From assembly GCA_032718475.1 (NCBI GenBank), contig JAUCBJ010004795.1, positions 1-63,879 on the forward strand: 63,879 bases of DNA, given 5' to 3'. The stretch's first letter is position 1. Each line of letters opens with the position of its first letter. This DNA is from Nemertoderma westbladi (taxonomy: Eukaryota; Animalia; Xenacoelomorpha). Positions 1,523 to 62,765 of this stretch are shown here, piece by piece. The notes under the pieces are model-generated. The model made no database searches. It worked only from the letters and a program-made list of their open reading frames with translations, and was not told where the DNA came from. The translations under genes were made by a program, and so were the position numbers.

Positions 1523-1654
1523 CTCGAATATGGGATCTTTGGAAAGTCGACTTAAAGCTGCGAACTCGAGTATTAGTGTCCCCGCACACGCAGTACAGGT
1601 GTCCTGATTAGCACCCACGCGTGATTTATCACCAATTCCGTACTTTAAGTTCAC
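1523..1654 (-). CDS. EDEM3: EDEM3-like exon 5 ([33 protein letters not shown])
   Basis: Acceptor tttcag at 1655-1660, donor GTATTT at 1522; 132 nt, phase 0/0. Confidence 0.93.
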
Positions 1655-4600
1655 CTGAAATTATAATATGTAATGATTATTATCAATACCGGGATAGACC
1701 CGAAACATTATTTATATTGTTAACAATTTATTGTAAATAAATTGCATATTCTACTTAAACTATGTGGCTATGAACTACAACTAACTACCGACACCCACTT
1801 ACATATTTTCTTACAAAGTTACTTACAAAATCCCATTGTATCTTTTAAATTTATTGTAGGTCAATGAGATATTGCTTTTATCTGTGTTTTAAATTGATGT
1901 AAGGTTGAGATTGTGGCTCTCGGAAGGTCTTTATGTAGATCGTTCCATAGAAGGGGGTGTGATAGGTAGAGGATTGGGTGAGGTTGGATCGGTAAAATGG
2001 GAATCGGTGCGATGCAGGTTGTTCGAGTGGGATAAGTATGGATAGATTTGGCGAATGTGAATTTGTTCTTTAGTTGGGTTGGGAGTTTTGATAGACCCAT
2101 CCTAAAGCAGAATGTGTACTGTAGGTAGGAATTTATCGAGTGAGGACAGATTCATTAATTTCAATTGATTAAATAAGATGTGTGTAATGGTGGTCATGAG
2201 ATTACAAGAGGATTATCCTAATGATTTTTTTCTGTAATTTTATTAATGGAAGAAGGCAGATAGCGGGGATAGGAGTGGTGTGATAATCGCCGCAGTTTCC
2301 CCAAAGTAAGATTCAATCACAGAATGATATAAGTTGATGAGTATATTTAGTGGCAAGAAGTTCTTAGTTTTGTTTACAATTCCAATATTTTTTTGCAATT
2401 TTCAGTCGAATATAATCGACATGTTTGTTCTATTTTCGGTCGAATATAATCGACATGTTTGTTCTATTTTCGGTCGAATATAATCGACATGTTTGTTCTA
2501 TTTTTGGTCATCCCTGTTAAATATACCAAGGTATTTTTATATGTTTACCTTGTTCAATGTTGTGTGGACCATTTGAGATTTGAGTATTCTTCAGTTGCGT
2601 TTTTTTAATCATGTATTTCGGTGGTGATGATTTTTTTATTCGCATATTTTGACTGTAATATAAAAACCTATACTAGCATAAAGCTGTGACAATTACATAC
2701 ATACTGAGCGTGATATAGCAGAAGCAACTCACTACCACCTATCATGTTTTAAATATATTACGGAGGATAAATAATACATTAATAATAAAGTACATGTGTG
2801 CCATGACAACTCATTAGTTAGTTCACTTCACATGGTACTCAATACTAACTACTAGGAGGACTAGCGCATTGTCGACATAAACACACATTAAACCCGCACT
2901 ACAATTACCAACACAACTTAGACCGCCCTGCGCTGTTGGTTTAAATGAATATTCACCTTACGAACTACAATATATATAATAAATAAATCGTTTAGTGTAG
3001 ATGGATGGTTGATTAAGAACTGATTTCGGTATAACTTTCTTAAAGAGTTTTTATTTTAAAAAAAGCAAAGCTCCATCAATAATGACGTGTCGCACCTTGA
3101 AGTAAATTAACATGGGGAGGTATTAATTTGGCGATGCGTGATTTTGTGTTCGTATTATTTACAATAACTATTATTTGTTTCTATTTCTTTGTGCTCATTC
3201 ATATTATTTAGTATTTATTTAGCCTTAGTTTTATACTAAAAACCAATAGTTATTGTCCTGCCCATTCCAATCTACGATAATAATATTAGTACACCATGTC
3301 CCGTAATATAGTGTCATTTTCTGATGACACGGACCCCCCCCCCCCCCAAATTTTTCTACAAATCTTTATCATATTGCTTAAAATTTGAAACATAACTAGT
3401 TCCACTCACCGTCGTTGACCCCATGAAGCCGGAATTTTCGATTAATAAGTGAGAATAAGATAGAATAAATGGCCTGCAGTGAACAATAATTCTTGCAATC
3501 TTTAAACTCCTATATCTCAGCTGTTTCTCAACGAAATTCAGATATTGTTACATATTTGGAATCCTTGCAACGCAAGCTTTCTATTGATGTGAACAAATTA
3601 CGACAAATATGAAGAATGTCCACGATACAGAGGGTGCGATTTCACAAAAGACACTTTTTAAAACGCTTATAAACAAAATTTGAAGACAAAATCGAAAATT
3701 CCGGCTTCATGGTAACAACGACGGTGAGTTGAACTAGTTGTGTTTCAAATTTCAAGCAATATGATAATGATTTGTAGAAAAATCTGGGGGGGGGGGGGGG
3801 GGGGTCCGTGTCACCAGAAAATGACACTATATTACGGGACATGGTGTATATATTACCTGAAAGTAAAAAAGTAGAACAAAAACTGTTGGCCGACTAATAC
3901 TAACCCTTGGATATGGAAGTCCTGATTTACTATTGAATGCCGGCAGTAATCTGTAAGCGATATCTTTGGATTTAGCAATAAGTTCATCGTTATACCAAAA
4001 CAATCCAACACCGTTGTCTCTGTACCAAACGGCAGCTGAATGACCTCCAAGCAATCCCCTGCAAAAATAATGGTCGATTTACTGATAAAAATATCCACCT
4101 GCAAAATTTAATATAAAATACAATTTTATTCACTAGAAAGGGAATTAAACCATGGAGACGAGCTTACTCACCCCAGCACACGGATCGTTGTCTCGTTACT
4201 CACCCCAGCACACGGATCGTTGTCTCGCTACTCACCCCAGCACACGGATCGTTGTCTCGTTACTCACCCCAGCACACGAATCGTTGTCTCGCTACTCACC
4301 CCAGCACACGGATCGTTGTCTCGCTACTCACCCCAGCACACGGATCGTTGTCTCGTTACTCACCCCAGCACACGGATCGTTGTCTCGCTACTCACCCCAG
4401 CACACGGATCGTTGTCTCGTTACTCACCCCAGCACACTGATCGTTGTCTCGTTACTCACCCCAGCACACGAATCGTTGTCTCGTCTACTCACCCCAGCAC
4501 ACGGATCGTTGTCTCGCTACTCACCCCAGCACACGGATCGTTGTCTCGTTACTCACCCCAGCACACGGATCGTTGTCTCGCTACTCACCCCAGCACACGA

Positions 4601-7600
4601 ATCGTTGTCTCGCTACTCACCCCAGCACACGGATCGTTGTCTCGTTACTCACCCCAGCACACGGATCGTTGTCTCGCTACTCACCCCAGCACACGGATCG
4701 TTGTCTCGCTACTCACCCCAGCACACGGATCGTTGTCTCGTTACTCACCCCAGCACACGGATCGTTGTCTCGCTACTCACCCCAGCACACGGATCGTTGT
4801 CTCGCTACTCACCCCATCACACTGATCGTTGTCTCGCTACTCACCCCAGCACACGGATCGTTGTCTCGCTACTCACCCCAGCACACGGATCGTTGTCTCG
4901 CTACTCACCCCATCACACTGATCGTTGTCTCGTTACTCACCCCAGCACACGGATCGTTGTCTCGCTACTCACCCCAGCACACGGATCGTTGTCTCGCTAC
5001 TCACCCCAGCACACGAATCGTTGTCTCGTTACTCACCCCAGCACACGGATCGTTGTCTCGTTACTCACCCCAGCACACGGATCGTTGTCTCGCTACTCAC
5101 CCCAGCACACGAATCGTTGTCTCGCTACTCACCCCAGCACACGGATCGTTGTCTCGTTACTCACCCCAGCACACGGATCGTTGTCTCGTTGTCGTTACTC
5201 ACCCCAGCACACGGATCGTTGTCTCGCTACTCACCCCAGCACACGGATCGTTGTCTCGCTACTCACCCCAGCACACTGATCGTTGTCTCGCTACTCACCC
5301 CAGCACACGAATCGTTGTCTCGTTACTCACCCCAGCACACGGATCGTTGTCTCGCTACTCACCCCAGCACACGAATCGTTGTCTCGCTACTCACCCCAGC
5401 ACACGGATCGTTGTCTCGCTACTCACCCCACGCTCACACTGATCGTTGTCTCGTTACTCACCCCAGCACACGGATCGTTGTCTCGCTACTCACCCCAGCA
5501 CACGGATCGTTGTCTCGCTACTCACCCCATCGCCATCACACTGATCGTTGTCTCGTTACTCACCCCAGCACACTGATCGTTGTCTCGCTACTCACCCCAG
5601 CACACTGATCGTTGTCTCGCTACTCACCCCAGCACACGAATCGTTGTCTCGTTACTCACCCCAGCACACGAATCGTTGTCTCGTTACTCACCCCAGCACA
5701 CGGATCGTTGTCTCGTTACTCACCCCAGCACACGAATCGTTGTCTCGCTACTCACCCCATCACACTGATCGTTGTCTCGTTACTCACCCCAGCACACGGA
5801 TCGTTGTCTCGCTACTCACCCCATCACACTGATCGTTGTCTCGTTACTCACCCCAGCACACGAATCGTTGTCTCGCTACTCACCCCAGCACACTGATCGT
5901 TGTCTCGTTACTCACCCCAGCACACGGATCGTTGTCTCGCTACTCACCCCATCACACTGATCGTTGTCTCGTTACTCACCCCAGCACACGGATCGTTGTC
6001 TCGCTACTCACCCCATCACACTGATCGTTGTCTCGTTACTCACCCCAGCACACGAATCGTTGTCTCGTTACTCACCCCAGCACACGAATCGTTGTCTCGT
6101 TACTCACCCCAGCACACGGATCGTTGTCTCGTTACTCACCCCAGCACACGAATCGTTGTCTCGCTACTCACCCCATCACACTGATCGTTGTCTCGTTACT
6201 CACCCCAGCACACGGATCGTTGTCTCGCTACTCACCCCATCACACTGATCGTTGTCTCGTTACTCACCCCAGCACACGGATCGTTGTCTCGCTACTCACC
6301 CCATCACACTGATCGTTGTCTCGTTACTCACCCCAGCACACGGATCGTTGTCTCGCTACTCACCCCAGCACACGAATCGTTGTCTCGTTACTCACCCCAG
6401 CACACGGATCGTTGTCTCGTTACTCACCCCAGCACACGAATCGTTGTCTCGCTACTCACCCCATCACACTGATCGTTGTCTCGTTACTCACCCCAGCACA
6501 CGGATCGTTGTCTCGCTACTCACCCCATCACACTGATCGTTGTCTCGTTACTCACCCCAGCACACGGATCGTTGTCTCGCTACTCACCCCATCACACTGA
6601 TCGTTGTCTCGTTACTCACCCCAGCACACGAATCGTTGTCTCGCTACTCACCCCAGCACACTGATCGTTGTCTCGCTACTCACCCCAGCACACGGATCGT
6701 TGTCTCGCTACTCACCCCAGCACACTGATCGTTGTCTCGCTACTCACCCCAGCACACGGATCGTTGTCTCGCTACTCACCCCAGCACACTGATCGTTGTC
6801 TCGCTACTCACCCCAGCACACGAATCGTTGTCTCGTTACTCACCCCAGCACACGAATCGTTGTCTCGTTACTCACCCCAGCACACGGATCGTTGTCTCGC
6901 TACTCACCCCAGCACACGAATCGTTGTCTCGCTACTCACCCCAGCACACGGATCGTTGTCTCGCTACTCACCCCAGCACACGGATCGTTGTCTCGCTACT
7001 CACCCCATCGCCATCACACTGATCGTTGTCTCGTTACTCACCCCAGCACACGGATCGTTGTCTCGCTACTCACCCCATCACACTGATCGTTGTCTCGTTA
7101 CTCACCCCAGCACACGGATCGTTGTCTCGCTACTCACCCCATCACACTGATCGTTGTCTCGATACTCACCCCAGCACACGAATCGTTGTCTCGCTACTCA
7201 CCCCAGCACACGGATCGTTGTCTCGCTACTCACCCCATCGCCATCACACTGATCGTTGTCTCGTTACTCACCCCAGCACACTGATCGTTGTCTCGCTACT
7301 CACCCCAGCACACTGATCGTTGCCTCGCTACTCACCCCAGCACACTGATCGTTGTCTCGCTACTCACCCCAGCACACGAATCGTTGTCTCGTTACTCACC
7401 CCAGCACACGAATCGTTGTCTCGTTACTCACCCCAGCACACGGATCGTTGTCTCGCTTACTCACCCCAGCACACGAATCGTTGTCTCGCTACTCACCCCA
7501 TCACACTGATCGTTGTCTCGTTACTCACCCCAGCACACGGATCGTTGTCTCGCTACTCACCCCATCACACTGATCGTTGTCTCGTTACTCACCCCAGCAC

Positions 7601-10600
7601 ACGAATCGTTGTCTCGCTACTCACCCCAGCACACTGATCGTTGTCTCGTTACTCACCCCAGCACACGGATCGTTGTCTCGCTACTCACCCCATCACACTG
7701 ATCGTTGTCTCGTTACTCACCCCAGCACACGGATCGTTGTCTCGCTACTCACCCCATCACACTGATCGTTGTCTCGTTACTCACCCCAGCACACGAATCG
7801 TTGTCTCGTTACTCACCCCAGCACACGAATCGTTGTCTCGTTACTCACCCCAGCACACGGATCGTTGTCTCGTTACTCACCCCAGCACACGAATCGTTGT
7901 CTCGCTACTCACCCCATCACACTGATCGTTGTCTCGTTACTCACCCCAGCACACGGATCGTTGTCTCGCTACTCACCCCATCACACTGATCGTTGTCTCG
8001 TTACTCACCCCAGCACACGGATCGTTGTCTCGCTACTCACCCCATCACACTGATCGTTGTCTCGTTACTCACCCCAGCACACGAATCGTTGTCTCGCTAC
8101 TCACCCCAGCACACTGATCGTTGTCTCGTTACTCACCCCAGCACACGGATCGTTGTCTCGCTACTCACCCCATCACACTGATCGTTGTCTCGTTACTCAC
8201 CCCAGCACACGGATCGTTGTCTCGCTACTCACCCCATCACACTGATCGTTGTCTCGTTACTCACCCCAGCACACGGATCGTTGTCTCGTTACTCACCCCA
8301 GCACACGAATCGTTGTCTCGTTACTCACCCCAGCACACGGATCGTTGTCTCGCTACTCACCCCAGCACACGAATCGTTGTCTCGCTACTCACCCCAGCAC
8401 ACGGATCGTTGTCTCGCTACTCACCCCAGCACACGGATCGTTGTCTCGCTACTCACCCCATCGCCATCACACTGATCGTTGTCTCGTTACTCACCCCAGC
8501 ACACGGATCGTTGTCTCGCTACTCACCCCATCACACTGATCGTTGTCTCGTTACTCACCCCAGCACACGGATCGTTGTCTCGTTACTCACCCCAGCACAC
8601 GGATCGTTGTCTCGCTACTCACCCCAGCACACGAATCGTTGTCTCGCTACTCACCCCAGCACACGGATCGTTGTCTCGCTACTCACCCCAGCACACGGAT
8701 CGTTGTCTCGCTACTCACCCCATCGCCATCACACTGATCGTTGTCTCGTTACTCACCCCAGCACACGGATCGTTGTCTCGCTACTCACCCCATCACACTG
8801 ATCGTTGTCTCGTTACTCACCCCAGCACACGGATCGTTGTCTCGCTACTCACCCCATCACACTGATCGTTGTCTCGTTACTCACCCCAGCACACGGATCG
8901 TTGTCTCGCTACTCACCCCAGCACACGGATCGTTGTCTCGCTACTCACCCCATCGCCATCACACTGATCGTTGTCTCGTTACTCACCCCAGCACACTGAT
9001 CGTTGTCTCGCTACTCACCCCAGCACACTGATCGTTGCCTCGCTACTCACCCCAGCACACTGATCGTTGTCTCGCTACTCACCCCAGCACACGAATCGTT
9101 GTCTCGTTACTCACCCCAGCACACGAATCGTTGTCTCGTTACTCACCCCAGCACACGGATCGTTGTCTCGTTATCGTTACTCACCCCAGCACACGAATCG
9201 TTGTCTCGCTACTCACCCCATCACACTGATCGTTGTCTCGTTACTCACCCCAGCACACGGATCGTTGTCTCGCTACTCACCCCATCACACTGATCGTTGT
9301 CTCGTTACTCACCCCAGCACACGAATCGTTGTCTCGCTACTCACCCCAGCACACTGATCGTTGTCTCGTTACTCACCCCAGCACACGGATCGTTGTCTCG
9401 CTACTCACCCCATCACACTGATCGTTGTCTCGTTACTCACCCCAGCACACGGATCGTTGTCTCGCTACTCACCCCATCACACTGATCGTTGTCTCGTTAC
9501 TCACCCCAGCACACGAATCGTTGTCTCGTTACTCACCCCAGCACACGAATCGTTGTCTCGTTACTCACCCCAGCACACGGATCGTTGTCTCGTTACTCAC
9601 CCCAGCACACGAATCGTTGTCTCGCTACTCACCCCATCACACTGATCGTTGTCTCGTTACTCACCCCAGCACACGGATCGTTGTCTCGCTACTCACCCCA
9701 TCACACTGATCGTTGTCTCGTTACTCACCCCAGCACACGGATCGTTGTCTCGCTACTCACCCCATCACACTGATCGTTGTCTCGTTACTCACCCCAGCAC
9801 ACGAATCGTTGTCTCGCTACTCACCCCAGCACACTGATCGTTGTCTCGTTACTCACCCCAGCACACGGATCGTTGTCTCGCTACTCACCCCATCACACTG
9901 ATCGTTGTCTCGTTACTCACCCCAGCACACGGATCGTTGTCTCGCTACTCACCCCATCACACTGATCGTTGTCTCGTTACTCACCCCAGCACACGAATCG
10001 TTGTCTCGTTACTCACCCCAGCACACGAATCGTTGTCTCGTTACTCACCCCAGCACACGGATCGTTGTCTCGCTACTCACCCCAGCACACGAATCGTTGT
10101 CTCGCTACTCACCCCAGCACACGGATCGTTGTCTCGCTACTCACCCCAGCACACGGATCGTTGTCTCGCTACTCACCCCATCGCCATCACACTGATCGTT
10201 GTCTCGTTACTCACCCCAGCACACGGATCGTTGTCTCGCTACTCACCCCATCACACTGATCGTTGTCTCGTTACTCACCCCAGCACACGGATCGTTGTCT
10301 CGCTACTCACCCCATCACACTGATCGTTGTCTCGCTACTCACCCCAGCACACGAATCGTTGTCTCGCTACTCACCCCAGCACACGGATCGTTGTCTCGCT
10401 ACTCACCCCATCGCCATCACACTGATCGTTGTCTCGTTACTCACCCCAGCACACTGATCGTTGTCTCGCTACTCACCCCAGCACACTGATCGTTGTCTCG
10501 CTACTCACCCCAGCACACGGATCGTTGTCTCGTTACTCACCCCAGCACACGGATCGTTGTCTCGCTACTCACCCCAGCACACGGATCGTTGTCTCGTTAC

Positions 10601-13600
10601 TCACCCCAGCACACGGATCGTTGTCTCGCTACTCACCCCAGCACACGGATCGTTGTCTCGTTACTCACCCCAGCACACGAATCGTTGTCTCGTTACTCAC
10701 CCCAGCACACGAATCGTTGTCTCGTTACTCACCCCAGCACACGGATCGTTGTCTCGTTACTCACCCCAGCACACGAATCGTTGTCTCGCTACTCACCCCA
10801 TCACACTGATCGTTGTCTCGTTACTCACCCCAGCACACGGATCGTTGTCTCGCTACTCACCCCATCACACTGATCGTTGTCTCGTTACTCACCCCAGCAC
10901 ACGGATCGTTGTCTCGCTACTCACCCCATCACACTGATCGTTGTCTCGCTACTCACCCCATCGCCATCACACTGATCGTTGTCTCGTTACTCACCCCAGC
11001 ACACTGATCGTTGTCTCGCTACTCACCCCAGCACACTGATCGTTGTCTCGCTACTCACCCCAGCACACGAATCGTTGTCTCGTTACTCACCCCAGCACAC
11101 GAATCGTTGTCTCGTTACTCACCCCAGCACACGGATCGTTGTCTCGTTACTCACCCCAGCACACGAATCGTTGTCTCGCTACTCACCCCATCACACTGAT
11201 CGTTGTCTCGTTACTCACCCCAGCACACGGATCGTTGTCTCGCTACTCACCCCATCACACTGATCGTTGTCTCGTTACTCACCCCAGCACACGGATCGTT
11301 GTCTCGCTACTCACCCCATCACACTGATCGTTGTCTCGTTACTCACCCCAGCACACGGATCGTTGTCTCGCTACTCACCCCATCACACTGATCGTTGTCT
11401 CGTTACTCACCCCAGCACACGGATCGTTGTCTCGCTACTCACCCCATCACACTGATCGTTGTCTCGTTACTCACCCCAGCACACGAATCGTTGTCTCGTT
11501 ACTCACCCCAGCACACGAATCGTTGTCTCGTTACTCACAGCACACGGATCGTTGTCTCGCTACTCACCCCATCACACTGATCGTTGTCTCGTTACTCACC
11601 CCAGCACACGGATCGTTGTCTCGCTACTCACCCCATCACACTGATCGTTGTCTCGTTACTCACCCCAGCACACGAATCGTTGTCTCGCTACTCACCCCAG
11701 CACACTGATCGTTGTCTCGTTACTCACCCCAGCACACGGATCGTTGTCTCGCTACTCACCCCATCACACTGATCGTTGTCTCGTTACTCACCCCAGCACA
11801 CGGATCGTTGTCTCGCTACTCACCCCATCACACTGATCGTTGTCTCGTTACTCACCCCAGCACACGGTTCGTTGTCTCGCTACTCACCCCAGCACACTGA
11901 TCGTTGTCTCGCTACTCACCCCAGCACACGGATCGTTGTCTCGCTACTCACCCCAGCACACGGATCGTTGTCTCGTTACTCACCCCAGCACACGGATCGT
12001 TGTCTCGCTACTCACCCCATCACACTGATCGTTGTCTCGTTACTCACCCCAGCACACGGATCGTTGTCTCGCTACTCACCCCAGCACACGGTTCGTTGTC
12101 TCGCTACTCACCCCAGCACACTGATCGTTGTTTCGCTACTCACCCCAGCACACGGATCGTTGTCTCGCTACTCACCCCAGCACACGGATCGTTGTCTCGT
12201 TACTCACCCCAGCACACGGATCGTTGTCTCGCTACTCACCCCATCACACTGATCGTTGTCTCGTTACTCACCCCAGCACACGGATCGTTGTCTCGCTACT
12301 CACCCCATCACACTGATCGTTGTCTCGTTACTCACCCCAGCACACGGATCGTTGTCTCACTACTCACCCCATCGCCATCACACTGATCGTTGTCTCGTTA
12401 CTCACCCCAGCACACGGATCGTTGTCTCGCTACTCACCCCAGCACACGGATCGTTGTCTCGTTACTCACCCCAGCACACGGATCGTTGTCTCGTTACTCA
12501 CCCCAGCACACGGATCGGTATCTCGTTACTCACCCCAGCACACGGATCGTTGTCTCGCTACTCACCCCAGCACACGGTTCGTTGTCTCGCTACTCACCCC
12601 AGCACACTGATCGTTGTTTCGCTACTCACCCCAGCACACGGATCGTTGTCTCGCTACTCACCCCAGCACACGGATCGTTGTCTCGTTACTCACCCCAGCA
12701 CACGAATCGTTGTCTCGCTACTCACCCCATCACACTGATCGTTGTCTCGCTACTCACCCCATCACACTGATCGTTGTCTCGCTACTCACCCCAGCACACG
12801 GATCGTTGTCTCGCTACTCACCCCAGCACACGAATCGTTGTCTCGTTACTCACCCCAGCACACGGATCGTTGACTCGCTACTCACCCCAGCACACGGATC
12901 GTTGTCTCGCTACTCACCCCAGCACACGAATCGTTGTCTCGCTACTCACCCCAGCACACGGATCGTTGTCTCGCTACTCACCCCAGCACACGGTTCGTTG
13001 TCTCGCTACTCACCCCAGCACACGAATCGTTGTCTCGCTACTCACCCCATCACACTGATCGTTGTCTCGTTACTCACCCCAGCACACGGATCGTTGTCTC
13101 GTTACTCACCCCAGCACACGGATCGTTGTCTCGTTACTCACCCCAGCACACGGATCGTTGTCTCGCTACTCACCCCAGCACACGGATCGTTGTCTCGCTA
13201 CTCACCCCATCACACTGATCGTTGTCTCGTTACTCACCCCAGCACACGGATCGTTGTCTCGTTACTCACCCCAGCACACGGATCGTTGTCTCGTTACTCA
13301 CCCCAGCACACGGATCGTTGTCTCGCTACTCACCCCAGCACACGGATCGTTGTCTCGTTACTCACCCCAGCACACGGATCGTTGTCTCGCTACTCACCCC
13401 AGCACACGGATCGTTGTCTCGTTACTCACCCCAGCACACGGATCGTTGTCTCGAAGGTCGATACTACCACATCGTTATCGAAGGAAACCTCGTTGATTAC
13501 TTTACGAACGGAGCTATCAAACCTATCGATGTCACCAATAACCGCGATAGTATCAAGAGAATCAATAAGAGTTAACGCAAACCTAAAATATTCAAACAGA

Positions 13601-14379
13601 TAGGCCTATATAATTACTGAGTCCAGGATGCTTTATAACTATCTCGAGAAGTCAACGTAAAATCCCAACCGTTAATATCTTACATTCCAAGGGAATCGTC
13701 CACATTGCCTCGGTTTGGCTCCATATCTCTGAATCGGCCTCGACAACTGAGTGGCATTAACTCATCCGCGGGGTATGCGTTATCCATGTAGGAGTTGAAT
13801 GCGTGGTCAAACATTTCCAACACCTCGTCTCTGTAATGAAATAAGATGTGGATCTAAACATTTAAACACATTTGAATAATTTATCGAATTTTGTAATTGA
13901 ATAATATGAATGAATTAAATATTCTAATAAAAAGTAGCGAAATATGTGAATGACTTACAAAGAAAGTTGCAGCATTTATGCCATATTTTATTGTACAAAA
14001 ATTATATGGAGGATTTCAAAAGGTTAGATTATTGATATAGAAAATACAGAGATAATAGGCCTGCATTTTGTCAGTTTGTATAATACAATAAAGAGTAATA
14101 AAAAATTGATATGATAAAAAAAAAGTTCAAATTAAGACACATAGCACTATATTCCAGTTCCTACACATGTCGTAATAGGCCTTCAAACAACTTTTAATTC
14201 GAGTTGATACAGGACAGACGTTTATTTATAATTAAGTATTCGCCTTACCTTAGTCTGATTTTATCAACGTAAGAAAATTCCGATGCTGCGTTCATGTGTC
14301 TTCTTAAACAAACGACAATACAGACAAAAACAAACAAACATGTACGATGACCACCGGTTCCATTACAGGTCCCTCCCAT
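1523..14379 (-). CDS. EDEM3: EDEM3-like ER degradation-enhancing alpha-mannosidase (GH47), 5' part; exons 14379-14249, 13830-13684, 13582-13430, 4058-3905, 1654-1523; continues beyond position 1
   Basis: Spliced translation: [161 protein letters not shown]. This matches remembered EDEM3 motifs. All introns are GT-AG with consistent phases (2,2,2,0,0). Confidence 0.93.
1861..2620 (-). mobile_element. Degenerate 3' fragment of an L2/CR1-group LINE, containing a 34-bp triplication (2405..2507)
   Basis: Broken peptides such as [22 protein letters not shown] and [15 protein letters not shown] resemble the C-terminal end of L2/CR1 ORF2. Multiple stops and frameshifts. Confidence 0.55.
3292..3846. 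mobile_element. MITE with ~150-bp terminal inverted repeats and TA target duplication (Tc1/mariner-like)
   Basis: caccatgtcccgtaatatagtgtcattttctg..gccggaattttcgat at the left end is mirrored at 3693..3846; TA flanks both sides (3290-3291, 3847-3848). Confidence 0.88.
3905..4058 (-). CDS. EDEM3: EDEM3-like exon 4 ([18 protein letters not shown])
   Basis: Acceptor ttattttTGCAG at 4059, donor GTTAGT at 3904; 154 nt, phase 2/0. Confidence 0.93.
4164..13453 (-). repeat. 32-bp tandem array (~290 copies) made of the EDEM3 exon 3 3' end plus its 5' splice donor
   Basis: Minus-strand unit CGAGACAACGATCCGTGTGCTGGG|GTGAGTA(A/G). The first copy encodes ETTIRVLG of exon 3. Confidence 0.97.
13430..13582 (-). 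CDS. EDEM3: EDEM3-like exon 3 ([20 protein letters not shown])
   Basis: Acceptor tattttag at 13583, first GTGAGT donor at 13429; 153 nt, phase 2/2. Confidence 0.92.
13684..13830 (-). CDS. EDEM3: EDEM3-like exon 2 ([26 protein letters not shown])
   Basis: Acceptor ttacag at 13831, donor GTAAGA at 13683; 147 nt. Confidence 0.94.
14249..14379 (-). CDS. EDEM3: EDEM3-like exon 1, signal-peptide/anchor region
   Basis: ATG at 14379, hydrophobic stretch [12 protein letters not shown], donor AG|GTAAGG at 14248 in the phase required by exon 2. Confidence 0.82.
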
Positions 14380-17599: not shown

Positions 17600-18075
17600 A
17601 CTTACATACATCATCGGTCAGCGCATCCCATGGGTCAATGACCCGAAGTGAACGGTGGAGTTTCGTTGGAGTAATCTCACACGTGGTTTCTGGAGTTTTA
17701 AGAAGAGGACGTGAGTACTGCTGGAGGAGAGAGTATATTGATGGTTGACCGACTCTAATCCCGACAGATACCGATAAACCTGGATGAGATCAGCGCGATG
17801 GCGACGATACTCGATTGTCGGGAGACCCAACTGCCGCAAGCGAAGAGGGTACTGTGGCTACTAATTGAGTAGCTCGCCATTGGACTGATCCAAGAGTTCG
17901 GTTGGATTTTTTCACAATCGTTTCAATATGGTGGCCGAATGAGAGGTAGTTCTGGAATATGACTCCGATGTATTTTTCTTTGTTAGTCTCGAATTGATAT
18001 TGAAGATATATGCATAATTTTACTTTTTGTGAAGTGGAAACTCAACTGCCACATTCGTCGGCAAATCTATAAATT
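17600..18075 (-). mobile_element. Degenerate CR1-type LINE 3' fragment
   Basis: WQLSFHFTKSKIMHI, KYIGVIFQNYLSFGHHIETIVKKSNRTLG and RLRQLGLPTIEYRRHRADLIQVYRYLSG are typical CR1 ORF2 C-terminal motifs, here broken by deletions. Confidence 0.8.
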
Positions 18076-41879: not shown

Positions 41880-42441
41880 TTATAACGTATCTTGGAATCC
41901 CTTTCCATCTTGAAATTGACGTCGATTATCAAAATCCGCATCATCAACGGGTTGTAAGACGGGCTGGTCGTCATCTACAGGTCCCTCACTGTCCGGCAAA
42001 TCGTCAGCAACATGTATCGAGTCCGCGGCATGATGCGCTGAGTCCGCGGCAATAACCGCGGCATTATGTGGAGAGTCATCAGTTTGATCTTGCTGCCAAT
42101 CAGTTGGATCTTCTAACTGTTGGTTCTGGGCCGGTAGAGCCTGGTGATTGGCTGGATCTAACTGTTGGTTCTGGGCCGGTAGAGCCTGGTGATTGGCTCC
42201 CATAAGTACATCAGGTTGCACGGGGCCCGGCCCTGCGCCGTGGGCCTGCGCTGCGTTGATTGGTTGTTGTATCTGGTTATCTCTTCCATCCACCGGGTCA
42301 TTCACATTTTGCAATGGCTTCTCTATCTGAACTCCCAGATTCTGTTTAACAACACCGTCTGCCTGGGCATCTTCACCGTGTTTCTGTTTAACAACACTGT
42401 CTGCTTGTTCGTCTCCAACGTTTTGCGAGTTACAAGTTAAC
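41880..42441 (-). CDS. GOLM2: GOLM-like terminal exon 5 (acidic, Gln/Asp-rich; internal ANHQALPAQNQQL duplication)
   Basis: Acceptor ttttcctttag at 42442; frame of ORF 41880..42518; TAA at 41880. Confidence 0.8.
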
Positions 42442-45400
42442 CTAAAGGAAAATTTGAAAAAAACAAAAATTAAGGTGATTATGAAATTGTTATATTTCCA
42501 TTGACTATAAAAAGCCATTACGATTAGATTATAATATACAGTATTATCTCAGTATTTATATAATTTCTAATACCTAATCTATAATCCTAATAGGAGGTTG
42601 GAGGTGTGGGGGGGGGGGGGGGGGGACTCTCCGCAAATCCCATCTCGGCGAATTAATATCTCGCTTCATTCCTAAATTATCAATTTAGGGAAGGAGCTTT
42701 AAGCGTATTAGTAAGAATTATGTCAAATCTTTAGCGCTAAATCGTTGGTTATAAATCGGTTATAAAGGACATTTTTGTGGAACAAAAGTTATTTTTATTT
42801 TATAAAAAAAAGTAATATTTTAGTAAAAGCAAAATATTTTTGATGCCAAAAAGTCGAGGAAAAAATGTTCTTAATTATTTCGATGAAATGCGGATTACAA
42901 AGATGAGGTCATTCGGAATTGAAATTGAAGGCAAAATCTTTTACTTAAAATGGCGGAGATTTACGGCCAAATACATTGGATGGATAAAAACAGCCGACTT
43001 GTCTTCCTAAAAATGGCGGACGTTCATGGACGGAGCACGTATACTGCTATCCTGTGTATTTAAAGTCCGCACCGGAATACGTAGAGTTTCTGGTATACCA
43101 AATAATGTTGTCAAGTACTACCTGGAAGCGAAGTTAAATTAATTCGTGGCGACGGCGAGCAAGGCGGGAGGAGTGAAAAGACGATGTTGTGGAATAAAAT
43201 TACGGATTACATAGAAAACATGATCGTGGGGCTTTCGCGCAGCACGAGAGCCTACATTATAAAGTGCTGTATACTAAACTCTATTAGATATACGAAAACC
43301 GCCTTTCCCAAAATAAATATAAGTGATGGTGATGCGATCAGTTTGCGATAAACTAGTTGTAAAAACAGAGGACATTTCAGTTTGCACTTAGACGCTTTAA
43401 CTGTAATTTGTAAACCTACTAACTAGGGCTATTTAAGTTCAGTATAACATACTCTTCTCCTTCATTAGCCTCGTTGTGCTCGTCTTGTTCTGTCTTAAAA
43501 TAATTTTCCTAAACGAAGACTAACGGCCTTTATAACTATGCAAAGTCTCGAAACTGTACAACTGAAAGATATTATGAGTATGAGAACCCTCCAGGAGAAA
43601 TACCGGCTCGGTCGTCGCCCGGGTCAACAAGGACTGCGTCCCTCAGTGGTATACCAGGCTGGGGTCGATAAATTGGCTACTGGAACAGAAGACAGAGAAG
43701 AAAGAAGAACCAACCTGTTGAAATGTAAAAAGACACTAAAGATTGCTACAATGAACGCACGCACGCTGAAAGCACAGAGCAAACAGGGTGACATGGTTGC
43801 TCTGGCAATGGAATATAACATCGACATCATCTGCATCCAAGAACATCGGATTTGTCATGAAGACACTGCCATGAAGTACAATGACATTGGAAATGGATGG
43901 ACGTTAGTAACAAGCTCAGCAGTAAGAAACTCGGCCAATGCATCAATTGGTGGAGTAGGAATTCTGCTAAGCCCATTTGCACTTTGGACCCTAAACAACA
44001 TCGAATCTATAAATTCCAGGGTTATGATCGCAACATTTGATGGGAATCCCAAGACAACAGTTATATGTTGCTACAGTCCAACCAATGCATCAGAGCCACA
44101 ACAAGCAGTCAAGTTTTATGAAGAACTGACTGGACTTATTAAGGACATCCCGAAACACAATGTTAAAGTCATTGCTGGTGACCTGAATGCTCAAATTGGC
44201 CCAGAAGACATCAAGGGTTACACCTATAACACCAGTTCTAACAGAAATGGGTACTTACTTTTAGACCTAATGGAAGAATGTGAATTGATACCAACAAACA
44301 ACACATTCGAAACACTGCTCACATACAGCAACAATCAAGACTTACCTGGCAAACTGTAAATGAGGTATCTGGTCGGAAAAGTTGTGCAAAGGGGCGCCTC
44401 AAAGCCGATAGTCCTGAAGAACGTGTTGGGAAGTGGAAAAATCACTTCAGCAACTTGCTTGGGCAGCCACCAAACATCGAGGTCAGCCCTACAAGGAAAA
44501 TATATGACAAGACACTACCTATAGAAACAGGGGACTTCACACCTGCCGAACTCCAAAGAAGCATTAAAAGCATGTCCAATAATAAAGCGAGTGGATTAGA
44601 TGAAATCCCAGCGGAGGTATGGAAAACCGGAGTGCTAAATAGACCATTATTGAATGTTTGCAACCGGATGTTAAAAGGGGAAAAGCCACCACCAATTTGG
44701 ACTAAAGGTCAACTAAAGCCTCTCCCCAAGAAAGGAGACCTCGGCATACCAACAAACTATCGTGGGATCTGTCTGCTTGTGATAGCTGCCAAAATATACA
44801 ATAAAATGACTCTATATAGGATTAGGCCTCACATAGAGCAACTACTGCGTAAGAGCCAAAACGGATTTCGACCAAGTAGATCAACAATAGCTCAGATACT
44901 TGCACTAAGGAGACTGATTGAAGGAATTAAGTCAAAAAATCTCCCCGAAGTCATGACTTTTGTGGACTTCAAGAAGGCATTCGACTCCATCCATAGAGGT
45001 AAAATGCTTGAAATCCTAAGAGCTTATGGAATACCAGAAGTAATTGTTGCTGGCATTGGATTGTTATATTGTGACACAGAAGCGCAGGTACTCTCACCAG
45101 ATGGTGAAACTGAGTTTTTCTCAATCCTGGCTGGCGTACTGCAAGGTGACACATTAGCACCATTACTATTTGTAATTGTGCTGGATTACGCAATGAGGAC
45201 GGCCACAAAGGGTGAAGATCTGGGATTCACACTTCAAGAACGCAGAAGTAGTATAGATATCCGGCAACTACAGTCACAGACACCGACTTTGCGGATGACA
45301 TCGCCCTGCTCTCTAATACGCTAGCAGATGCACATTGCACAGCTTCTACAAAATAAAGTGGAGAGGGCTGCTAAGGAGGTTGGATTGCATATAAATGCTA

Positions 45401-48400: not shown

Positions 48401-51400
48401 GAAAGGGAGCACTTCTTGTCACCATTTTCAATTGAAAAAATAATGTGGCAAACTGTCAGACGAGTTTCTAAATCAGTATTTGTAGCGCGGCTGAGGTACT
48501 CACGTATTGTGTTGCAGCTGAGGTACTCACGTATTGTAGTGCGGCTGAGGTACTCACGTATTGTGTTGCGGCTGAGGTACTCACGTATTGTGTTGCAGCT
48601 GAGGTACTCACGTATTGTAGTGCGGCTGAGGTACTCACGTATTGTAGTGCGGCTGAGGTACTCACGTATTGTAGTGCGGCTGAGGTACTCACGTATTGTA
48701 GTGCGGCTGAGGTACTCACGTATTGTAGTGCGGCTGAGGTACTCACGTATTGTAGTACTGCTGAGGTACTCACGTATTGTAGTGCGGCTGAGGTACTCAC
48801 GTATTGTGTTGCGGCTGAGGTACTCACGTATTGTAGTGCGGCTGAGGTACTCACGTATTGTGTTGCGGCTGAGGTACTCACGTATTGTGTTGCAGCTGAG
48901 GTACTCACGTATTGTAGTGCGGCTGAGGTACTCACGTATTGTAGTGCGGCTGAGGTACTCACGTATTGTAGTGCGGCTGAGGTACTCACGTATTGTAGTA
49001 CTGCTGAGGTACTCACGTATTGTGTTGCGGCTGAGGTACTCACGTATTGTAGTGCGGCTGAGGTACTCACGTATTGTGTTGCGGATGAGGTACTCACGTA
49101 TTGTAGTGCGGCTGAGGTACTCACGTATTGTAGTGCGGCTGAGGTACTCACGTATTGTGTTGCGGATGAGGTACTCACGTATTGTAGTGCGGCTGAGGTA
49201 CTCACGTATTGTAGTACTGCTGAGGTACTCACGTATTGTAGTGCGGCTGACCTACTCACGTATTGTGTTGCGGCTGAGGTATTTACGTATTGTAGTGTGG
49301 CTGAGGTACTCACGTATTGTAGTACTGCTGAGGTACTCACGTATTGTAGTACTGCTGAGGTACTCACGTATTGTGTTGCGGCTGAGGTACTCACGTATTG
49401 TAGCGCGGCTGAGGTACTCACGTATTGTAGTGCGACTGAGGTACTCACGTATTGTAGTACTGCTGAGGTACTCACGTATTGTAGTGCGACTGAGGTACTC
49501 ACGTATTGTGTTGCGGCTGAGGTACTCACGTATTGTAGCGCGGCTGAGGTACTCACGTATTGTAGTGCGACTGAGGTACTCACGTATTGTAGTGCGGCTG
49601 AGGTACTCACGTATTGTGTTGCGGCTGAGGTACTCACGTATTGTGTTGCGGCTGAGGTATTTACGTATTGTAGTGCGGCTGAGGTACTCACGTATTGTAG
49701 TGCGGCTGAGGTACTCACGTATTGTAGTGCGGCTGAGGTACTCACGTATTGTGTTGCGGCTGAGGTGAGGTACTCACGTATTGTGTTGCGGCTGAGGTAC
49801 TCACGTATTGTGTTGCGGCTGAGGTACTCACGTATTGTAGTGCGGCTGAGGTACTCACGTATTGTGTTGCAGCTAAGGTACTCACGTATTGTAGTGCGGC
49901 TGAGGTACTCACGTATTGTAGTGCGGCTGAGGTACTCACGTATTGTAGTGCGGCTGAGGTACTCACGTATTGTGTTGCGGCTGAGGTACTCATGTATTGT
50001 AGTGCGGCTGAGGTACTCACGTATTGTGTTGCAGCTGAGGTACTCACGTATTGTAGTGCGGCTGAGGTACTCACGTATTGTGTTGCAGCTGAGGTACTCA
50101 CGTATTGTAGTGCGGCTGAGGTACTCACGTATTGAGTTGCGGCTGAGGTACTCACGTATTGTAGTGCGGCTGCGGTACTCACGTATTGAGTTGCGGCTGA
50201 GGTACTCACGTATTGTGTTGCGGCTGGGGTACTCACGTATTGTAGTGCGGCTGAGGTACACACGTATTGTAGTGCGACTGAGGTACTCACGTATTGTGTT
50301 GCGGCCGAGGTACTCACGTATTGTAGTGCGGCTGAGGTACTCACGTATTGTAGTGCGGCTGAGGTACTCACGTATTGTAGTACTGCTGCGGTACTCACGT
50401 ATTGTAGTCAGTGCGGCTGAGGTACTCACGTATTGTAGTGCGGCTGAGGTACTCACGTATTGTAGTGCGGTTGACCTACTCACGTATTGTGTTGCGGCTG
50501 AGGTACTCACGTATTGTGTTGCAGCTGAGGTACTCACGTATTGTAGTGCGGTTGAGGTACTCACGTATTGTAGTGCGGCTGAGGTACTCACGTATTGTAG
50601 TGCGGCTGAGGTACTCATGTATTGTAGTGCGGCTGAGGTACTCACGTATTGTAGTGCGGCTGAGGTACTCACGTATTGTAGTGCGACTGAGGTACTCACG
50701 TATTGTGTTGCGGCTGAGGTACTCACGTATTGTAGTGCGGCTGAGGTACTCACGTATTGTAGTGCGACTGAGGTACTCACGTATTGTAGTGCGGCTGAGG
50801 TACTCACGTATTGTAGTGCGACTGAGGTACTCACGTATTGTGTTGCGGCTGTGGTACTCACGTATTGTAGTGCGGCTGAGGTACTCACGTATTGTAGTGC
50901 GGCTGAGGTACTCACGTATTGTAGTGCGACTGAGGTACTCACGTATTGTGTTGCGGCTGAGGTACTCACGTATTGTAGTGCGGATGAGGTACTCACGTAT
51001 TGTAGTGCGACTGAGGTACTCACGTATTGTAGTGCGGCTGAGGTACTCACGTATTGTAGTGCGACTGAGGTACTCACGTATTGTAGTGCGACTGAGGTAC
51101 TCACGTATTGTGTTGCGACTGAGGTACTCACGTATTGTAGTGCGGCTGAGGTACTCACGTATTGTGTTGCGGCTGAGGTACTCACGTATTGTGTTGCGGC
51201 TGAGGTACTCACGTATTGTAGTGCGGCTGAGGTACTCACGTATTGTAGTGCGACTGAGGTACTCACGTATTGTAGTGCGGCTGAGGTACTCACGTATTGT
51301 AGTGCGGCTGAGGTACTCACGTATTGTAGTGCGGCTGAGGTACTCACGTATTGTAGTGCGGCTGAGGTACTCACGTATTGTAGTGCGGCTGAGGTACTCA

Positions 51401-54400
51401 CGTATTGTAGTGCGGCTGAGGTACTCACGTATTGTAGTGCGGCTGAGGTACTCACGTATTGTAGTGCGACTGAGGTACTCACGTATTGTGTTGCGGCTGA
51501 GGTACTCACGTATTGTAGTGCGGCTGAGGTACTCACGTATTGTAGTGCGACTGAAGTACTCACGTATTGTGTTGCGGCTGAGGTACTCACGTATTGTAGT
51601 GCGGCTGAGGTACTCACGTATTGTAGTGCGACTGAGGTACTCACGTATTGTAGTGCGGCTGAGGTACTCACGTATTGTAGTGCGGCTGAGGTACTCACGT
51701 ATTGTAGTGCAACTGAGGTACTCACGTATTGTGTTGCGGCTGAGGTACTCACGTATTGTAGTGCGGCTGAGGTACTCACGTATTGTAGTGCGGATGAGGT
51801 ACTCACGTATTGTAGTGCGGCTGAGGTACTCACGTATTGTAGTGCGACTGAGGTACTCACGTATTGTGTTGCGGCTGAGGTACTCACGTATTGTAGTGCG
51901 GCTGAGGTACTCACGTATTGTAGTGCGACTGAGGTACTCACGTATTGTAGTGCGGCTGAGGTACTCACGTATTGTAGTGCGGCTGAGGTACTCACGTATT
52001 GTAGTGCGACTGAGGTACTCACGTATTGTGTTGCGGCTGAGGTACTCACGTATTGTAGTGCGGCTGAGGTACTCACGTATTGTAGTGCGACTGAGGTACT
52101 CACGTATTGTGTTGCGGCTGAGGTACTCACGTATTGTAGTGCGGCTGAGGTACTCACGTATTGTAGTGCGGCTGAGGTACTCACGTATTGTAGTGCGGCT
52201 GAGGTACTCACGTATTGTGTTGCGGCTGAGGTACTCACGTATTGTAGTGCGACTGAGGTACTCACGTATTGTAGTGCGACTGAGGTACTCACGTATTGTG
52301 TTGCGGCTGAGGTACTCACGTATTGTAGTGTGGCTGAGGTACTCACGTATTGTGTTGCGGCTGAGGTACTCACGTATTGTAGTGCGACTGAGGTACTCAC
52401 GTATTGTGTTGCGGCTGAGGTACTCACGTATTGTAGTGCGACTGAGGTACTCACGTATTGTGTTGCGGCTGAGGTACTCACGTATTGTAGTGCGACTGAG
52501 GTACTCACGTATTGTAGTACTGCTGAGGTACTCACGTATTGAGTTGCGGCTGAGGTACTCACGTATTGTAGTGCGACTGAGGTACTCACGTATTGTAGTG
52601 CGACTGAGGTACTCACGTATTGTAGTGCGGATGAGGTACTCACGTATTGTAGTGCGGCTGAGGTACTCACGTATTGTAGTGCGACTGAGGTACTCACGTA
52701 TTGTGTTGCGGCTGAGGTACTCACGTATTGTAGTGCGGCTGAGGTACTCACGTATTGTAGTGCGACTGAGGTACTCACGTATTGTAGTGCGGCTGAGGTA
52801 CTCACGTATTGTAGTGCGGCTGAGGTACTCACGTATTGTAGTGCGACTGAGGTACTCACGTATTGTGTTGCGGCTGAGGTACTCACGTATTGTAGTGCGG
52901 CTGAGGTACTCACGTATTGTAGTGCGACTGAGGTACTCACGTATTGTGTTGCGGCTGAGGTACTCACGTATTGTAGTGCGGCTGAGGTACTCACGTATTG
53001 TAGTGCGGCTGAGGTACTCACGTATTGTAGTGCGACTGAGGTACTCACGTATTGTGTTGCGGCTGAGGTACTCACGTATTGTAGTGCGGCTGAGGTACTC
53101 ACGTATTGTAGTGCGGCTGAGGTACTCACGTATTGTAGTGCGGCTGAGGTACTCACGTATTGTGTTGCGGATGAGGAACTCACGTATTGTAGTGCGACTG
53201 AGGTACTCACGTATTGTAGTGCGACTGAGGTACTCACGTATTGTGTTGCGGCTGAGGTACTCACGTATTGTAGTGTGGCTGAGGTACTCACGTATTGTGT
53301 TGCGGCTGAGGTACTCACGTATTGTAGTGCGACTGAGGTACTCACGTATTGTAGTGCGGCTGAGGTACTCACGTATTGTAGTGCGGCTGAGGTACTCACG
53401 TATTGTAGTGCGACTGAGGTACTCACGTATTGTGTTGCGGCTGAGGTACTCACGTATTGTAGTGTGGCTGAGGTACTCACGTATTGTGTTGCGGCTGAGG
53501 TACTCACGTATTGTAGTGCGGCTGAGGTACTCACGTATTGTAGTGCGACTGAGGTACTCACGTATTGTGTTGCGGCTGAGGTACTCACGTATTGTAGTGC
53601 GGCTGAGGTACTCACGTATTGCGTTGCGGCTGAGGTACTCACGTATTGTAGTGCGACTGAGGTACTCACGTATTGTGTTGCGGCTGAGGTACTCACGTAT
53701 TGTAGTGTGGCTGAGGTACTCACGTATTGTGTTGCGGCTGAGGTACTCACGTATTGTAGTGCGACTGAGGTACTCACGTATTGTAGTGCGGCTGAGGTAC
53801 TCACGTATTGTAGTGTGGCTGAGGTACTCACGTATTGTGTTGCGGCTGAGGTACTCACGTATTGTAGTGCGACTGAGGTACTCACGTATTGTAGTGCGGC
53901 TGAGGTACTCACGTATTGTAGTGCGACTGAGGTACTCACGTATTGTGTTGCGGCTGAGGTACTCACGTATTGTAGTGTGGCTGAGGTACTCACGTATTGT
54001 GTTGCGGCTGAGGTACTCACGTATTGTAGTGCGACTGAGGTACTCACGTATTGTAGTGCGGCTGAGGTACTCACGTATTGTAGTGCGGCTGAGGTACTCA
54101 CGTATTGTAGTGCGACTGAGGTACTCACGTATTGTGTTGCGGCTGAGGTACTCACGTATTGTAGTGTGGCTGAGGTACTCATGTATTGTGTTGCGGCTGA
54201 GGTACTCACGTATTGTAGTGCGGCTGAGGTACTCACGTTTTGTAGTGCGACTGAGGTACTCACGTATTGTGTTGCGGCTGAGGTACTCACGTATTGTAGT
54301 GCGGCTGAGGTACTCACGTATTGTAGTGCGACTGAGGTACTCACGTATTGTAGTGCGACTGAGGTACTCACGTATTGTGTTGCGGCTGAGGTACTCACGT

Positions 54401-57400
54401 ATTGTAGTGCGACTGAGGTACTCACGTATTGTGTTGCGGCTGAGGTACTCACGTATTGTAGTGCGACTGAGGTACTCACGTATTGTGTTGCGGCTGAGGT
54501 ACTCACGTATTGTAGTGCGACTGAGGTACTCACGTATTGTAGTACTGCTGAGGTACTCACGTATTGAGTTGCGGCTGAGGTACTCACGTATTGTGTTGCG
54601 GCTGAGGTACTCACGTATTGTAGTGCGACTGAGGTACTCACGTATTGTGTTGCGGCTGAGGTACTCACGTATTGTAGTGCGGCTGAGGTACTCACGTATT
54701 GTGTTGCGGCTGAGGTACTCACGTATTGTAGTGCGACTGAGGTACTCACGTATTGTGTTGCGGCTGAGGTACTCACGTATTGTAGTGCGACTGAGGTACT
54801 CACGTATTGTAGTGCGACTGAGGTACTCACGTATTGTAGTGCGACTGAGGTACTCACGTATTGTAGTGCGACTGAGGTACTCACGTATTGTAGTGCGACT
54901 GAGGTACTCACGTATTGTGTTGCGGCTGAGGTACTCACGTATTGTAGTGCGACTGAGGTACTCACGTATTGTAGTGCGACTGAGGTACTCACGTATTGTA
55001 GTGCGACTGAGGTACTCACGTATTGTGTTGCGGCTGAGGTACTCACGTATTGTAGTGCGGCTGAGGTACTCACGTATTGTAGTGCGGCTGAGGTACTCAC
55101 GTATTGTAGTGCGGCTGAGGTACTCACGTATTGTAGTGCGGCTGAGGTACTCACGTATTGTAGTGCGGCTGAGGTACTCACGTATTGATCTTGACATCGA
55201 AGTAAGTCGGACTGCGCAAGTTTTTCTTTATTTTCAATTTCCTCCTTTTCATGGAGATTGGCAGCCACTTGGCCATCTAGTAGCCCTGAAATAAAAGAAA
55301 ATATAAGTATTATATTCCGGTAGATAAATCTAACTTTATACAACAAATCAAACAGCTTAGCTCTCTCTATACCAATTAATATAAATAAATATCTACGACC
55401 TACTTCTGTACGTCTAACCCAGATTCACACCCCACGGTACTACCCGTGGCACCCCACCGTACGGTACTACAGGTATTAATTAAGGCACACCTGCTCGCTT
55501 TTTAGATTTCTCCAATTCATCTTTCAACGATTCAACCTCCTTAGTAATTTGCTCTACTCGGTAAAGCAGATCAGTATTTCTTTCCTCAAGAACACGTTTG
55601 TTAGAGACATTATCTTCTACCTGTAACAGAAGCGCTGTCAGACAGTTAGGCCCGTGGAAAATATAATTTGGGCCTACGTACAAATTTTAAATAAATTATG
55701 ACCAGTGCCGGATAGCTGGATTAAGGATTTTTGCAGCGGCCTGTAGCTTTCTCAAGGTTGCTGAATAAATGATGCCAAAAACTCTTCACTGTGCTTGAGG
55801 TCAACATACCACCCACCAGGCACGCAGGAGGGTGACACCGCGCCGCGACCACGTGACCCAGACCCACGACATAACGTGAGACGTCGGTCTCTTGACTGCT
55901 TGATGTTTGACGCGTAGGGGTAGGGTTAACTCTTAAAATTCCGGACACCATGGTCAAATTACGGACAAATTTAAATTTCATTGGTACAAACTATAGAATT
56001 AATATCTGAATTTGTACAATAGCCTATAGACTTTGATCACTGATGACTTAGAGGTACGGTCAGAATCACTAGAGGGAGCCCAAAGGCCCCTTTGCCAATT
56101 GGAGCAGGTTGTTTCTAGTGTCTGGTCTTTTTGTAAATTCCAAGAAGACCAAAATAATCACAGTCAACCTAGACAGTACTGCAGTACCAGTACTGCAGTA
56201 CTCTTATGGGAGTCCATGCTGAGCTCTACTGCTCTAACTGCTGAGGATACCAAATATGGTACTTTCACAAGAATGCTGCGCCGGGTTCATTGTTTCAAGT
56301 CCAATGAACACATCTCGAATCCTCTAATCAGACTCTATACAAAATTGGATGTGTTCCATTAATCTACCCTAGCTTGACTCTTGGGCGGAGCCGCCTCCGC
56401 TTTGCAGGACTGCATAGACCGATTCCAGATTCAAGCATCACCAAATTTTCAAAAGTTGCTAGCTGTTGATTGCCTATTGCATAAATTGTTTGCTTATTAT
56501 TATTACCAATAAAGGCTCGCCAAGCCTACTTGTCTATCTTTTGTGATACCGGTATGTCTAAACAGTACTTTATATAAGCCAGCAGAACCTGGAACGCTTT
56601 AGGCATAACTACAGAACTATATATATAATATATATTCCAGTAGGTGTATCATATATATTATAGGCAGTACTTATTACGATGGCTCTGGGTTATAATCGCA
56701 AGACACAGGTTAAATTCTATAAATCGTTAAATAGACAATTTGGGAGAGGAGCCCCATCGATAATTGATCCAAACATTGAGAAATATGTTGTATCGACTCT
56801 GATATATATTGGTAATTGTGGTTGGCCACTAACTGACAAAACCGAGACCAACTAATCCACATCATAAGAAATGCGTCTGGTGATATTTCCAATCGATGTA
56901 ATGTCTGCCAACAACCATAGCACTACTGTAGTAACTCTAGAACAACTTTGTTTAATTTATAATAGTTTCAATTATCAGCGCAATATCCTATGCAGTGTAA
57001 TCTGTTACTATTTTCTAAAAGATATTTTAGTTATTTTAGAATAATACTGTATACAAATTAATTGTTGTATTCTATATATATAGTCCAATAGTCAAGTCCG
57101 TCTCGCAGTGTATATTTGATAGTCTGATAGTAGTATCAGAGCCATATCATATACATTTAGTGGGCCTATAATTTTGTTATTATTGTATACCAATTATTAT
57201 CATAAAGCAATGCAGTTAGTTCATTTAAACAAAAATATTTTAAATAACACGGGTGGTGGGTGAGACGGGAGGGGCAACTGCTAACTGTTCGCAAATTCCA
57301 TCTTGGTGAATGAATATTTCGCTGCAATGTTAAATTCTCAATTTAGGGAAATGCGAAATAACGGTAAACACGAATGAGCAGATTATAGTGACACGTATTT

Positions 57401-62535: not shown

Positions 62536-62765
62536 GAGTCCCAGCATTGTAACCCAGTATTTTAATCACAGAGAGATTATAGAGACACCGTATAGAGATT
62601 CTCAATAGCATCAGGTTAAATTATCCCAATCAACAATTTAAAATGATTTGGAGTCAAAATTTAAATTTTCCACATTTAAAAACAACAAATAATAATTATT
62701 TTGGCTTTTGTTAATTATTTGTGCTGGACAGCAAAACTGAATCGCATACCAAAACCATGTGGGGA

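Follow-up and report, generated by a model that had tools for sequence, protein, structure and literature searches.

A 32-bp minisatellite reiterates the exon 3 splice donor of an EDEM3-like gene in Nemertoderma westbladi

The EDEM3-Like Gene and Its Donor Array

We analyzed one haplotype of the xenacoelomorph Nemertoderma westbladi over a single stretch of 63,879 nt (assembly GCA_032718475.1, contig JAUCBJ010004795.1, positions 1 to 63,879 of the forward strand), referred to below as the window. Its minus strand carries five coding exons of an EDEM3-like gene of family GH47, and intron 3 of this gene contains a 9.3-kb minisatellite in which the exon 3 splice donor is repeated hundreds of times (Table 1). 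With splicing at the first donor of the array, GT–AG introns link all five coding exons in one open frame. The joined exons 1–4 were 62% identical over 157 amino acids to a protein named as zebrafish EDEM3, and the alignment was gap-free across the exon 3/4 joint. Exon 2 had 698 homologues, of which the best 120 were all named EDEM3 or alpha-1,2-mannosidase or were unnamed; none of these was called EDEM1 or EDEM2, and most possessed PF02225; this comparison is one of names only, with the PA exons lying outside the window. The FET-IR-LGG motif of GH47, whose Glu we take to be catalytic, was found in 118 of 121 stored proteins. The host gene is intact as far as the window reaches, and its remaining exons lie beyond it.

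Tandem Repeats Finder (TRF) delineated the array at 4165–13453 with a period of 32, 288.0 copies and 92% matches. A first-pass annotation of the window had described a 9.3-kb tandem array of the EDEM3 exon 3/intron junction, and this description holds; its figure of about 290 copies is corrected here to 288 GTGAGT donors on the minus strand, the G of the first lying at 13429 and that of the last at 4171. The composition it gave for the unit, 24 coding nt followed by eight intron nt, also stands, as both reading frame and homology confirm the donor. Most of the 287 donor-to-donor units measured 32 nt (271 units); the rest measured 38 nt (12), 33 nt (two), 29 nt (one) and 35 nt (one). In all, 22 unit types were distinguished. 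The donor context was GGG|GTGAGT in 287 of 288 copies and GCT|GTGAGT in one, and each donor fits six of the nine consensus positions. The intron part had been given as GTGAGTA(A/G): the core was indeed present in 288 of 288 copies, and position +8 was G in 156 and A in 131, but T in one. Coding exon makes up 24 of the 32 nt of the unit, so that 129 of the 287 later donors are preceded by the final 24 nt of the true exon without any change, in agreement with the earlier remark that many donors share an identical context. Clean unique sequence flanks the array on both sides. The splice signal is thus reiterated head to tail with the authentic exon–intron boundary in the first unit, which makes the array an exon–intron boundary minisatellite.

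Reading through the first donor gives GGG TGA, that is, a stop within the donor itself. As had been anticipated from this triplet pair, use of any later donor introduces a stop, in 287 of 287 cases at codon 145; only the first donor, the farthest from the acceptor, keeps the frame open. Skipping of exon 4 likewise leads to a stop at codon 145, while skipping of exon 3 keeps the frame and removes the conserved motif. An additional acceptor-like site was seen at window positions 4098–4112 (minus strand), 40 nt upstream of the exon 4 acceptor and with a GT directly after it; its use would give a stop at codon 180.

Table 1. Features of the EDEM3-like gene, the neighboring gene and their donor arrays (window positions).
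Feature	Position	Strand	Details
32-bp minisatellite (24 nt from the end of EDEM3 exon 3 and 8 nt from the start of intron 3)	4164..13453	-	288 copies, 288 GTGAGT donors
First copy, with the true end of exon 3 and the authentic donor (GT starting at 13429)	13422..13453	-	Sole frame-keeping donor; joint gap-free against EDEM3 homologues
Last donor to acceptor, 113-nt unique stretch	4059..4171	-	Likely ancestral intron 3 (ancestry inferred)
EDEM3-like coding exon 1, with start codon and hydrophobic signal-like stretch (signal peptide judged by eye)	14249..14379	-	Open frame; no Pfam match
EDEM3-like coding exon 2	13684..13830	-	Pfam PF01532, E 2.6e-5; best homologues named EDEM3 or alpha-1,2-mannosidase
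EDEM3-like coding exon 3 (153 nt; upstream intron of 101 nt)	13430..13582	-	Pfam PF01532, E 8.7e-11
EDEM3-like coding exon 4, 154 nt	3905..4058	-	Pfam PF01532, E 1.3e-4
EDEM3-like coding exon 5; gene extends past window start	1523..1654	-	tblastn; Pfam PF01532, E 4.2e-5
Second donor array, 27-bp unit (about 6 exon nt and 21 intron nt), at exon 3 of neighboring gene	48480..55187	-	248 copies, 242 GTGAGT donors
Exon 3 of neighboring gene	55182..55285	-	Open frame through GT–AG joints
Other exons of neighboring gene	58195-58043, 55620-55491, 46890-46754, 42441 to about 41880	-	

Origin and Turnover of the Array

Three features bear on the origin of the array: the stretch between the last donor and the acceptor is unique, the first and last units are of one and the same type, and units identical to the exon are commoner at the edges (27 and 30 per bin of 48 units, versus 17–19 elsewhere). 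On these grounds, the ancestral intron 3 was likely 113 nt long, and the array likely arose by one near-blunt duplication across the exon–intron boundary followed by amplification. A 113-nt intron would also be close in size to the 101-nt intron 2. The tandem duplication at the head of this intron would have seeded the array, and slippage together with unequal exchange would then have extended the intron about 83-fold, to 9,371 nt. The longest repeated run of unit types was 25, whereas in 100 shuffles it averaged 5.6 and never exceeded eight. Such block-wise recurrence fits unequal exchange and does not by itself rule out assembly duplication.

The units are 96% identical to their consensus, so the array is either young or fast in turnover. 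None of its 13 substitution alleles fell in the donor core, where 2.4 were expected; this sparing was not significant (p = 0.067). In the 27-bp donor array of the neighboring gene, four of 26 substitution alleles were in the core versus 5.8 expected (p = 0.28), with no such trend. Selection on the donor cores was thus not supported in either array. Together, five arrays cover 59% of the window, which makes large minisatellites a common feature of this stretch.

Comparison with Known Donor-Spanning Minisatellites

Donor-spanning minisatellites are already in print and the size of the EDEM3 array is matched by one of them, so it is not unique. What is less usual is the combination of an exon-rich unit at 288 copies and an adjacent pair of arrays with and without a stop. 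The published systems are characterized here and below as in the cited passages of their sources.

The closest in size is the variable number tandem repeat (VNTR) in intron 18 of human ABCA7, with a 25-bp unit, about 12 to 427 copies and a length of up to 10.7 kb (De Roeck et al. 2018; PMC5954066). Both arrays start at a real donor and repeat it, and in both, use of the second donor leads to a premature stop and, in ABCA7, to nonsense-mediated mRNA decay (NMD). The ABCA7 unit starts at the GT, whereas that of EDEM3 is three quarters coding exon and has its stop inside the donor itself. Polymorphism and splicing have been measured for ABCA7, while the EDEM3 array is known here from sequence alone. 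In ABCA7, the second donor takes 2 ± 1% of transcripts at any array length (PMC5954066).

The 37-bp VNTR in intron 7 of human F7 shares with the EDEM3 array a first unit that straddles the exon–intron boundary (Borensztajn et al. 2006; PMC1557585). Its downstream donors, identical to the first, are functional yet unused, in-frame ones included, and splicing takes place at the intact site that lies farthest upstream (PMC1557585). As cited in the same paper, no further donor is used in LMNB2 and PDGF. The F7 unit includes four exon nt, that of EDEM3 24. F7 has five to nine copies, and CBS, IFI6, LMNB2 and PDGF have at most about 26, compared with 288 here.

Among invertebrates, the ‘mirage’ minisatellites of amphioxus, described in Adh3, globins, troponin C and PGBD5, apparently leave splicing undisturbed (PMC3087553, PMC3902484). 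Like the EDEM3 array, they are tandem copies of exon–intron boundaries (unit 10–160 bp) found in more than one gene of the same genome; in the globins there are three to six copies. The EDEM3 array is far longer, and it belongs to another animal lineage. A further parallel is provided by latent 5' splice sites, consensus donors that follow an in-frame stop and are normally silent but that heat shock reportedly activates (PMC3510495). The later EDEM3 donors differ from these in being tandem near-copies of the authentic donor with a stop-free array next door as a control.

With the EDEM3 array, the known donor-spanning minisatellites gain a very long member rich in exon sequence, with 288 donors and the full 24-nt exon context at 129 of the later ones. 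Because its last donor belongs to an intact 113-nt intron, it also poses a stiffer test of upstream-first choice versus intron definition than F7 does.

Choice Among the 288 Donors

We consider it probable that the array is a near-neutral minisatellite expansion carried as a tolerated passenger, with almost exclusive, upstream-first use of the first donor and slight leakage that NMD would remove. Immediately upstream of this donor, and of no other, lie an acceptor and a short intron that is spliced out, which would commit cross-exon definition or a 5'-to-3' scan to it. The later donors would have no usable upstream acceptor, and the exons defined by them would measure 185 to 9,411 nt. Leak to donor 2 or 3 may affect a few percent of transcripts, which would reach the stop at codon 145 and enter NMD. 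Exon-definition or first-come selection had been among the options listed in the first-pass annotation, and the F7 experiments, on a system of the same architecture, support it (PMC1557585).

Other means of singling out the first donor were considered. No acceptor-like sites were found inside the 32-bp array: at most six pyrimidines occur in the 15 nt before any of its 248 YAGs, versus 9–13 at eight real acceptors. A TAG precedes the in-frame 24-nt piece in 153 units, with a spacer of 8 nt, and the lack of polypyrimidine tracts speaks against tandem microexons and recursive splicing within the array. The mean unpaired probability of the donor 9-mer was predicted to be 0.43 for the first donor, 0.53 ± 0.12 for 47 sampled of the 282 inner donors and 0.32 for the last, and ranged from 0.10 to 0.77 at seven other real donors. 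RNA structure was rejected as a selector because predicted unpairing does not single out the first donor. Nor do G-run enhancers (286 G-runs) separate the first donor from the inner ones.

Several points weigh against tolerated, upstream-first splicing. The splicing evidence adduced for it is, by analogy, all borrowed from other species, and the F7 experiments did not cover arrays this long (PMC1557585). Two further donors are used in IFI6 and CBS, as cited in that paper. Transcription reaches every donor before the acceptor, and the order in which the sites are made is thus not enough to explain the choice. The intron defined by the last donor is about as long as the 101-nt intron of the same gene, and intron definition could therefore favor the wrong donor. 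That all 288 GTGAGT cores are intact amounts to a weak trend toward conservation (see above). Finally, the length of the ABCA7 array raises skipping of the downstream exon 3.2-fold (PMC5954066); given that skipping of exon 4 would truncate EDEM3 at codon 145, length need not be neutral here.

This last point leads to the strongest competitor, which we nevertheless judge unlikely: the array would be unselected yet not innocuous, its length lowering EDEM3 output through exon 4 skipping or donor leak into NMD, and it would act as a polymorphic splicing quantitative trait locus like the ABCA7 VNTR. The ABCA7 effect cited above was measured between extreme genotypes, and reached 4.1-fold between alleles (PMC5954066); the intron of EDEM3 is some 83 times its inferred original length, and exon 4 skipping and all 287 later donors converge on the same stop. 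The donor leak in ABCA7 is independent of length, however (PMC5954066), which also counts against the earlier suggestion that array length tunes EDEM3 output through unproductive splicing and NMD, and the lancelet mirages come without aberrant mRNA (PMC3087553, PMC3902484). If length did tune EDEM3, the array would be an invertebrate counterpart to the ABCA7 VNTR.

It is very unlikely that the array is a selected regulatory device in which stress, for instance heat or endoplasmic reticulum (ER) stress, would turn on the donors that lie behind a stop and so shut EDEM3 down via NMD. An in-frame stop before every later donor is the layout of the heat-shock-activated latent donors (PMC3510495), and the cores are intact in every copy. 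Their conservation is not significant, though, the high identity of the units is that of a young or fast-turnover array, and an unrelated neighboring gene has the same kind of array with the stop absent. In addition, EDEM genes are wanted during ER stress. We regard inflation by the assembly, with a real array much shorter than the assembled one, as improbable to the same degree. The run of 25 unit types could stem from misjoined reads, but the 22 unit types with shared, patterned variants, the enrichment of exon-like units at both edges, the clean unique flanks and the presence of four further large arrays in the window all speak against it. Sequestration of U1 small nuclear ribonucleoprotein by the array had also been proposed. 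That the nascent array alters splicing or premature polyadenylation in trans in this way can hardly be credited: each transcript would offer 288 donor-like sites, but one locus supplies at most some thousands of them, whereas a mammalian cell contains roughly a million U1 particles. The array also lacks any AATAAA or ATTAAA that U1 could protect, and no support for the idea was found in this analysis.

The Neighboring Gene and Its 27-bp Donor Array

The neighboring gene was predicted to have five exons encoding a membrane-anchored coiled-coil protein of 361 amino acids (hydropathy peak of 2.48 at residue 18). Nothing firm on its family came from the homologue search (exon 2), Atlas (exon 1) or Pfam (exons 1–4); by architecture, it may be GOLM1/CASC4-like. 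Its donor array is 6.7 kb long; of the 241 later donors, 219 lead in frame to the usual C-terminus. Read-through of the array is open for about 2,240 codons, and by our own reading two of the three frames of the unit are without a stop. Selection for this open frame was rejected, given that the frame is shifted and then restored by two indel units. The array is bordered on either side by a 5-nt microhomology (AATAC), which suggests an origin by slippage.

The two adjacent arrays form a natural pair, one with a stop and one without. The literature searches, none of which was aimed at such a pair, turned up no report of one. In the stop-free array, leak to later donors would be readable without NMD, which would show whether silence depends on an upstream stop. 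One could extend this to a general scheme, which we consider distinctly doubtful: tandem duplications would arise mostly at splice donors and expand into arrays of hundreds of units, array length would act as a dial on EDEM3, and the paired arrays would behave differently depending on the presence of a stop. If so, the EDEM3 array would be silent or feed NMD, and the neighboring gene would yield in-frame variants with a variable number of a 9-residue repeat. The pair would then be a natural test of stop-dependent splicing suppression and a source of splice-generated variation in protein length.

Repeats starting within 25 nt of one of the nine modeled donors made up three of 14 TRF repeats (binomial p = 0.002, or 0.023 without the EDEM3 array itself). 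This count excluded two single-base runs, one 3-bp repeat and nested or overlapping rows, and the test was post hoc and confined to one window. A 31-bp two-copy duplication at window positions 46688–46750 (minus strand) begins 3 nt behind the exon 4 donor of the neighboring gene and may be a nascent array that just missed the donor. The acidic last exon of this gene contains a 45-bp in-frame duplication (two copies, 15 residues) at 42112–42198 (minus strand). In its last intron, at about 43500–46040 (plus strand), a broken non-LTR (long terminal repeat) retrotransposon with endonuclease and reverse transcriptase was picked out by eye as a candidate.

Other Elements in the Window

The remaining three arrays were left out of the donor-array count, as no exon edges were found at them, though donor-like words occur in all three. 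The first, with a 17-bp unit and the telomere-like word TAACCC, lies at 1–630 within EDEM3 intron 5 and is cut by the window start. The other two form a composite intergenic satellite at 18090–39464, in which a 55-bp array (89 copies) is joined directly to a 20-bp array of 827 copies (16.5 kb) with extreme strand skew. Beside the 55-bp array, at about 17600–18070 (minus strand), a candidate 3' end of a CR1/L2-type long interspersed nuclear element was identified by eye. A Beclin-1 gene is located at 61303–62537 (plus strand), with a 410-amino-acid frame matching Pfam APG6 and APG6_N. It scored about 53% against all animal groups and formed a long, unplaced branch in a 46-row tree that included 45 of the 120 listed hits. 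Its conserved coding region lies in a single exon, and such a lack of introns is unusual for beclin-1.

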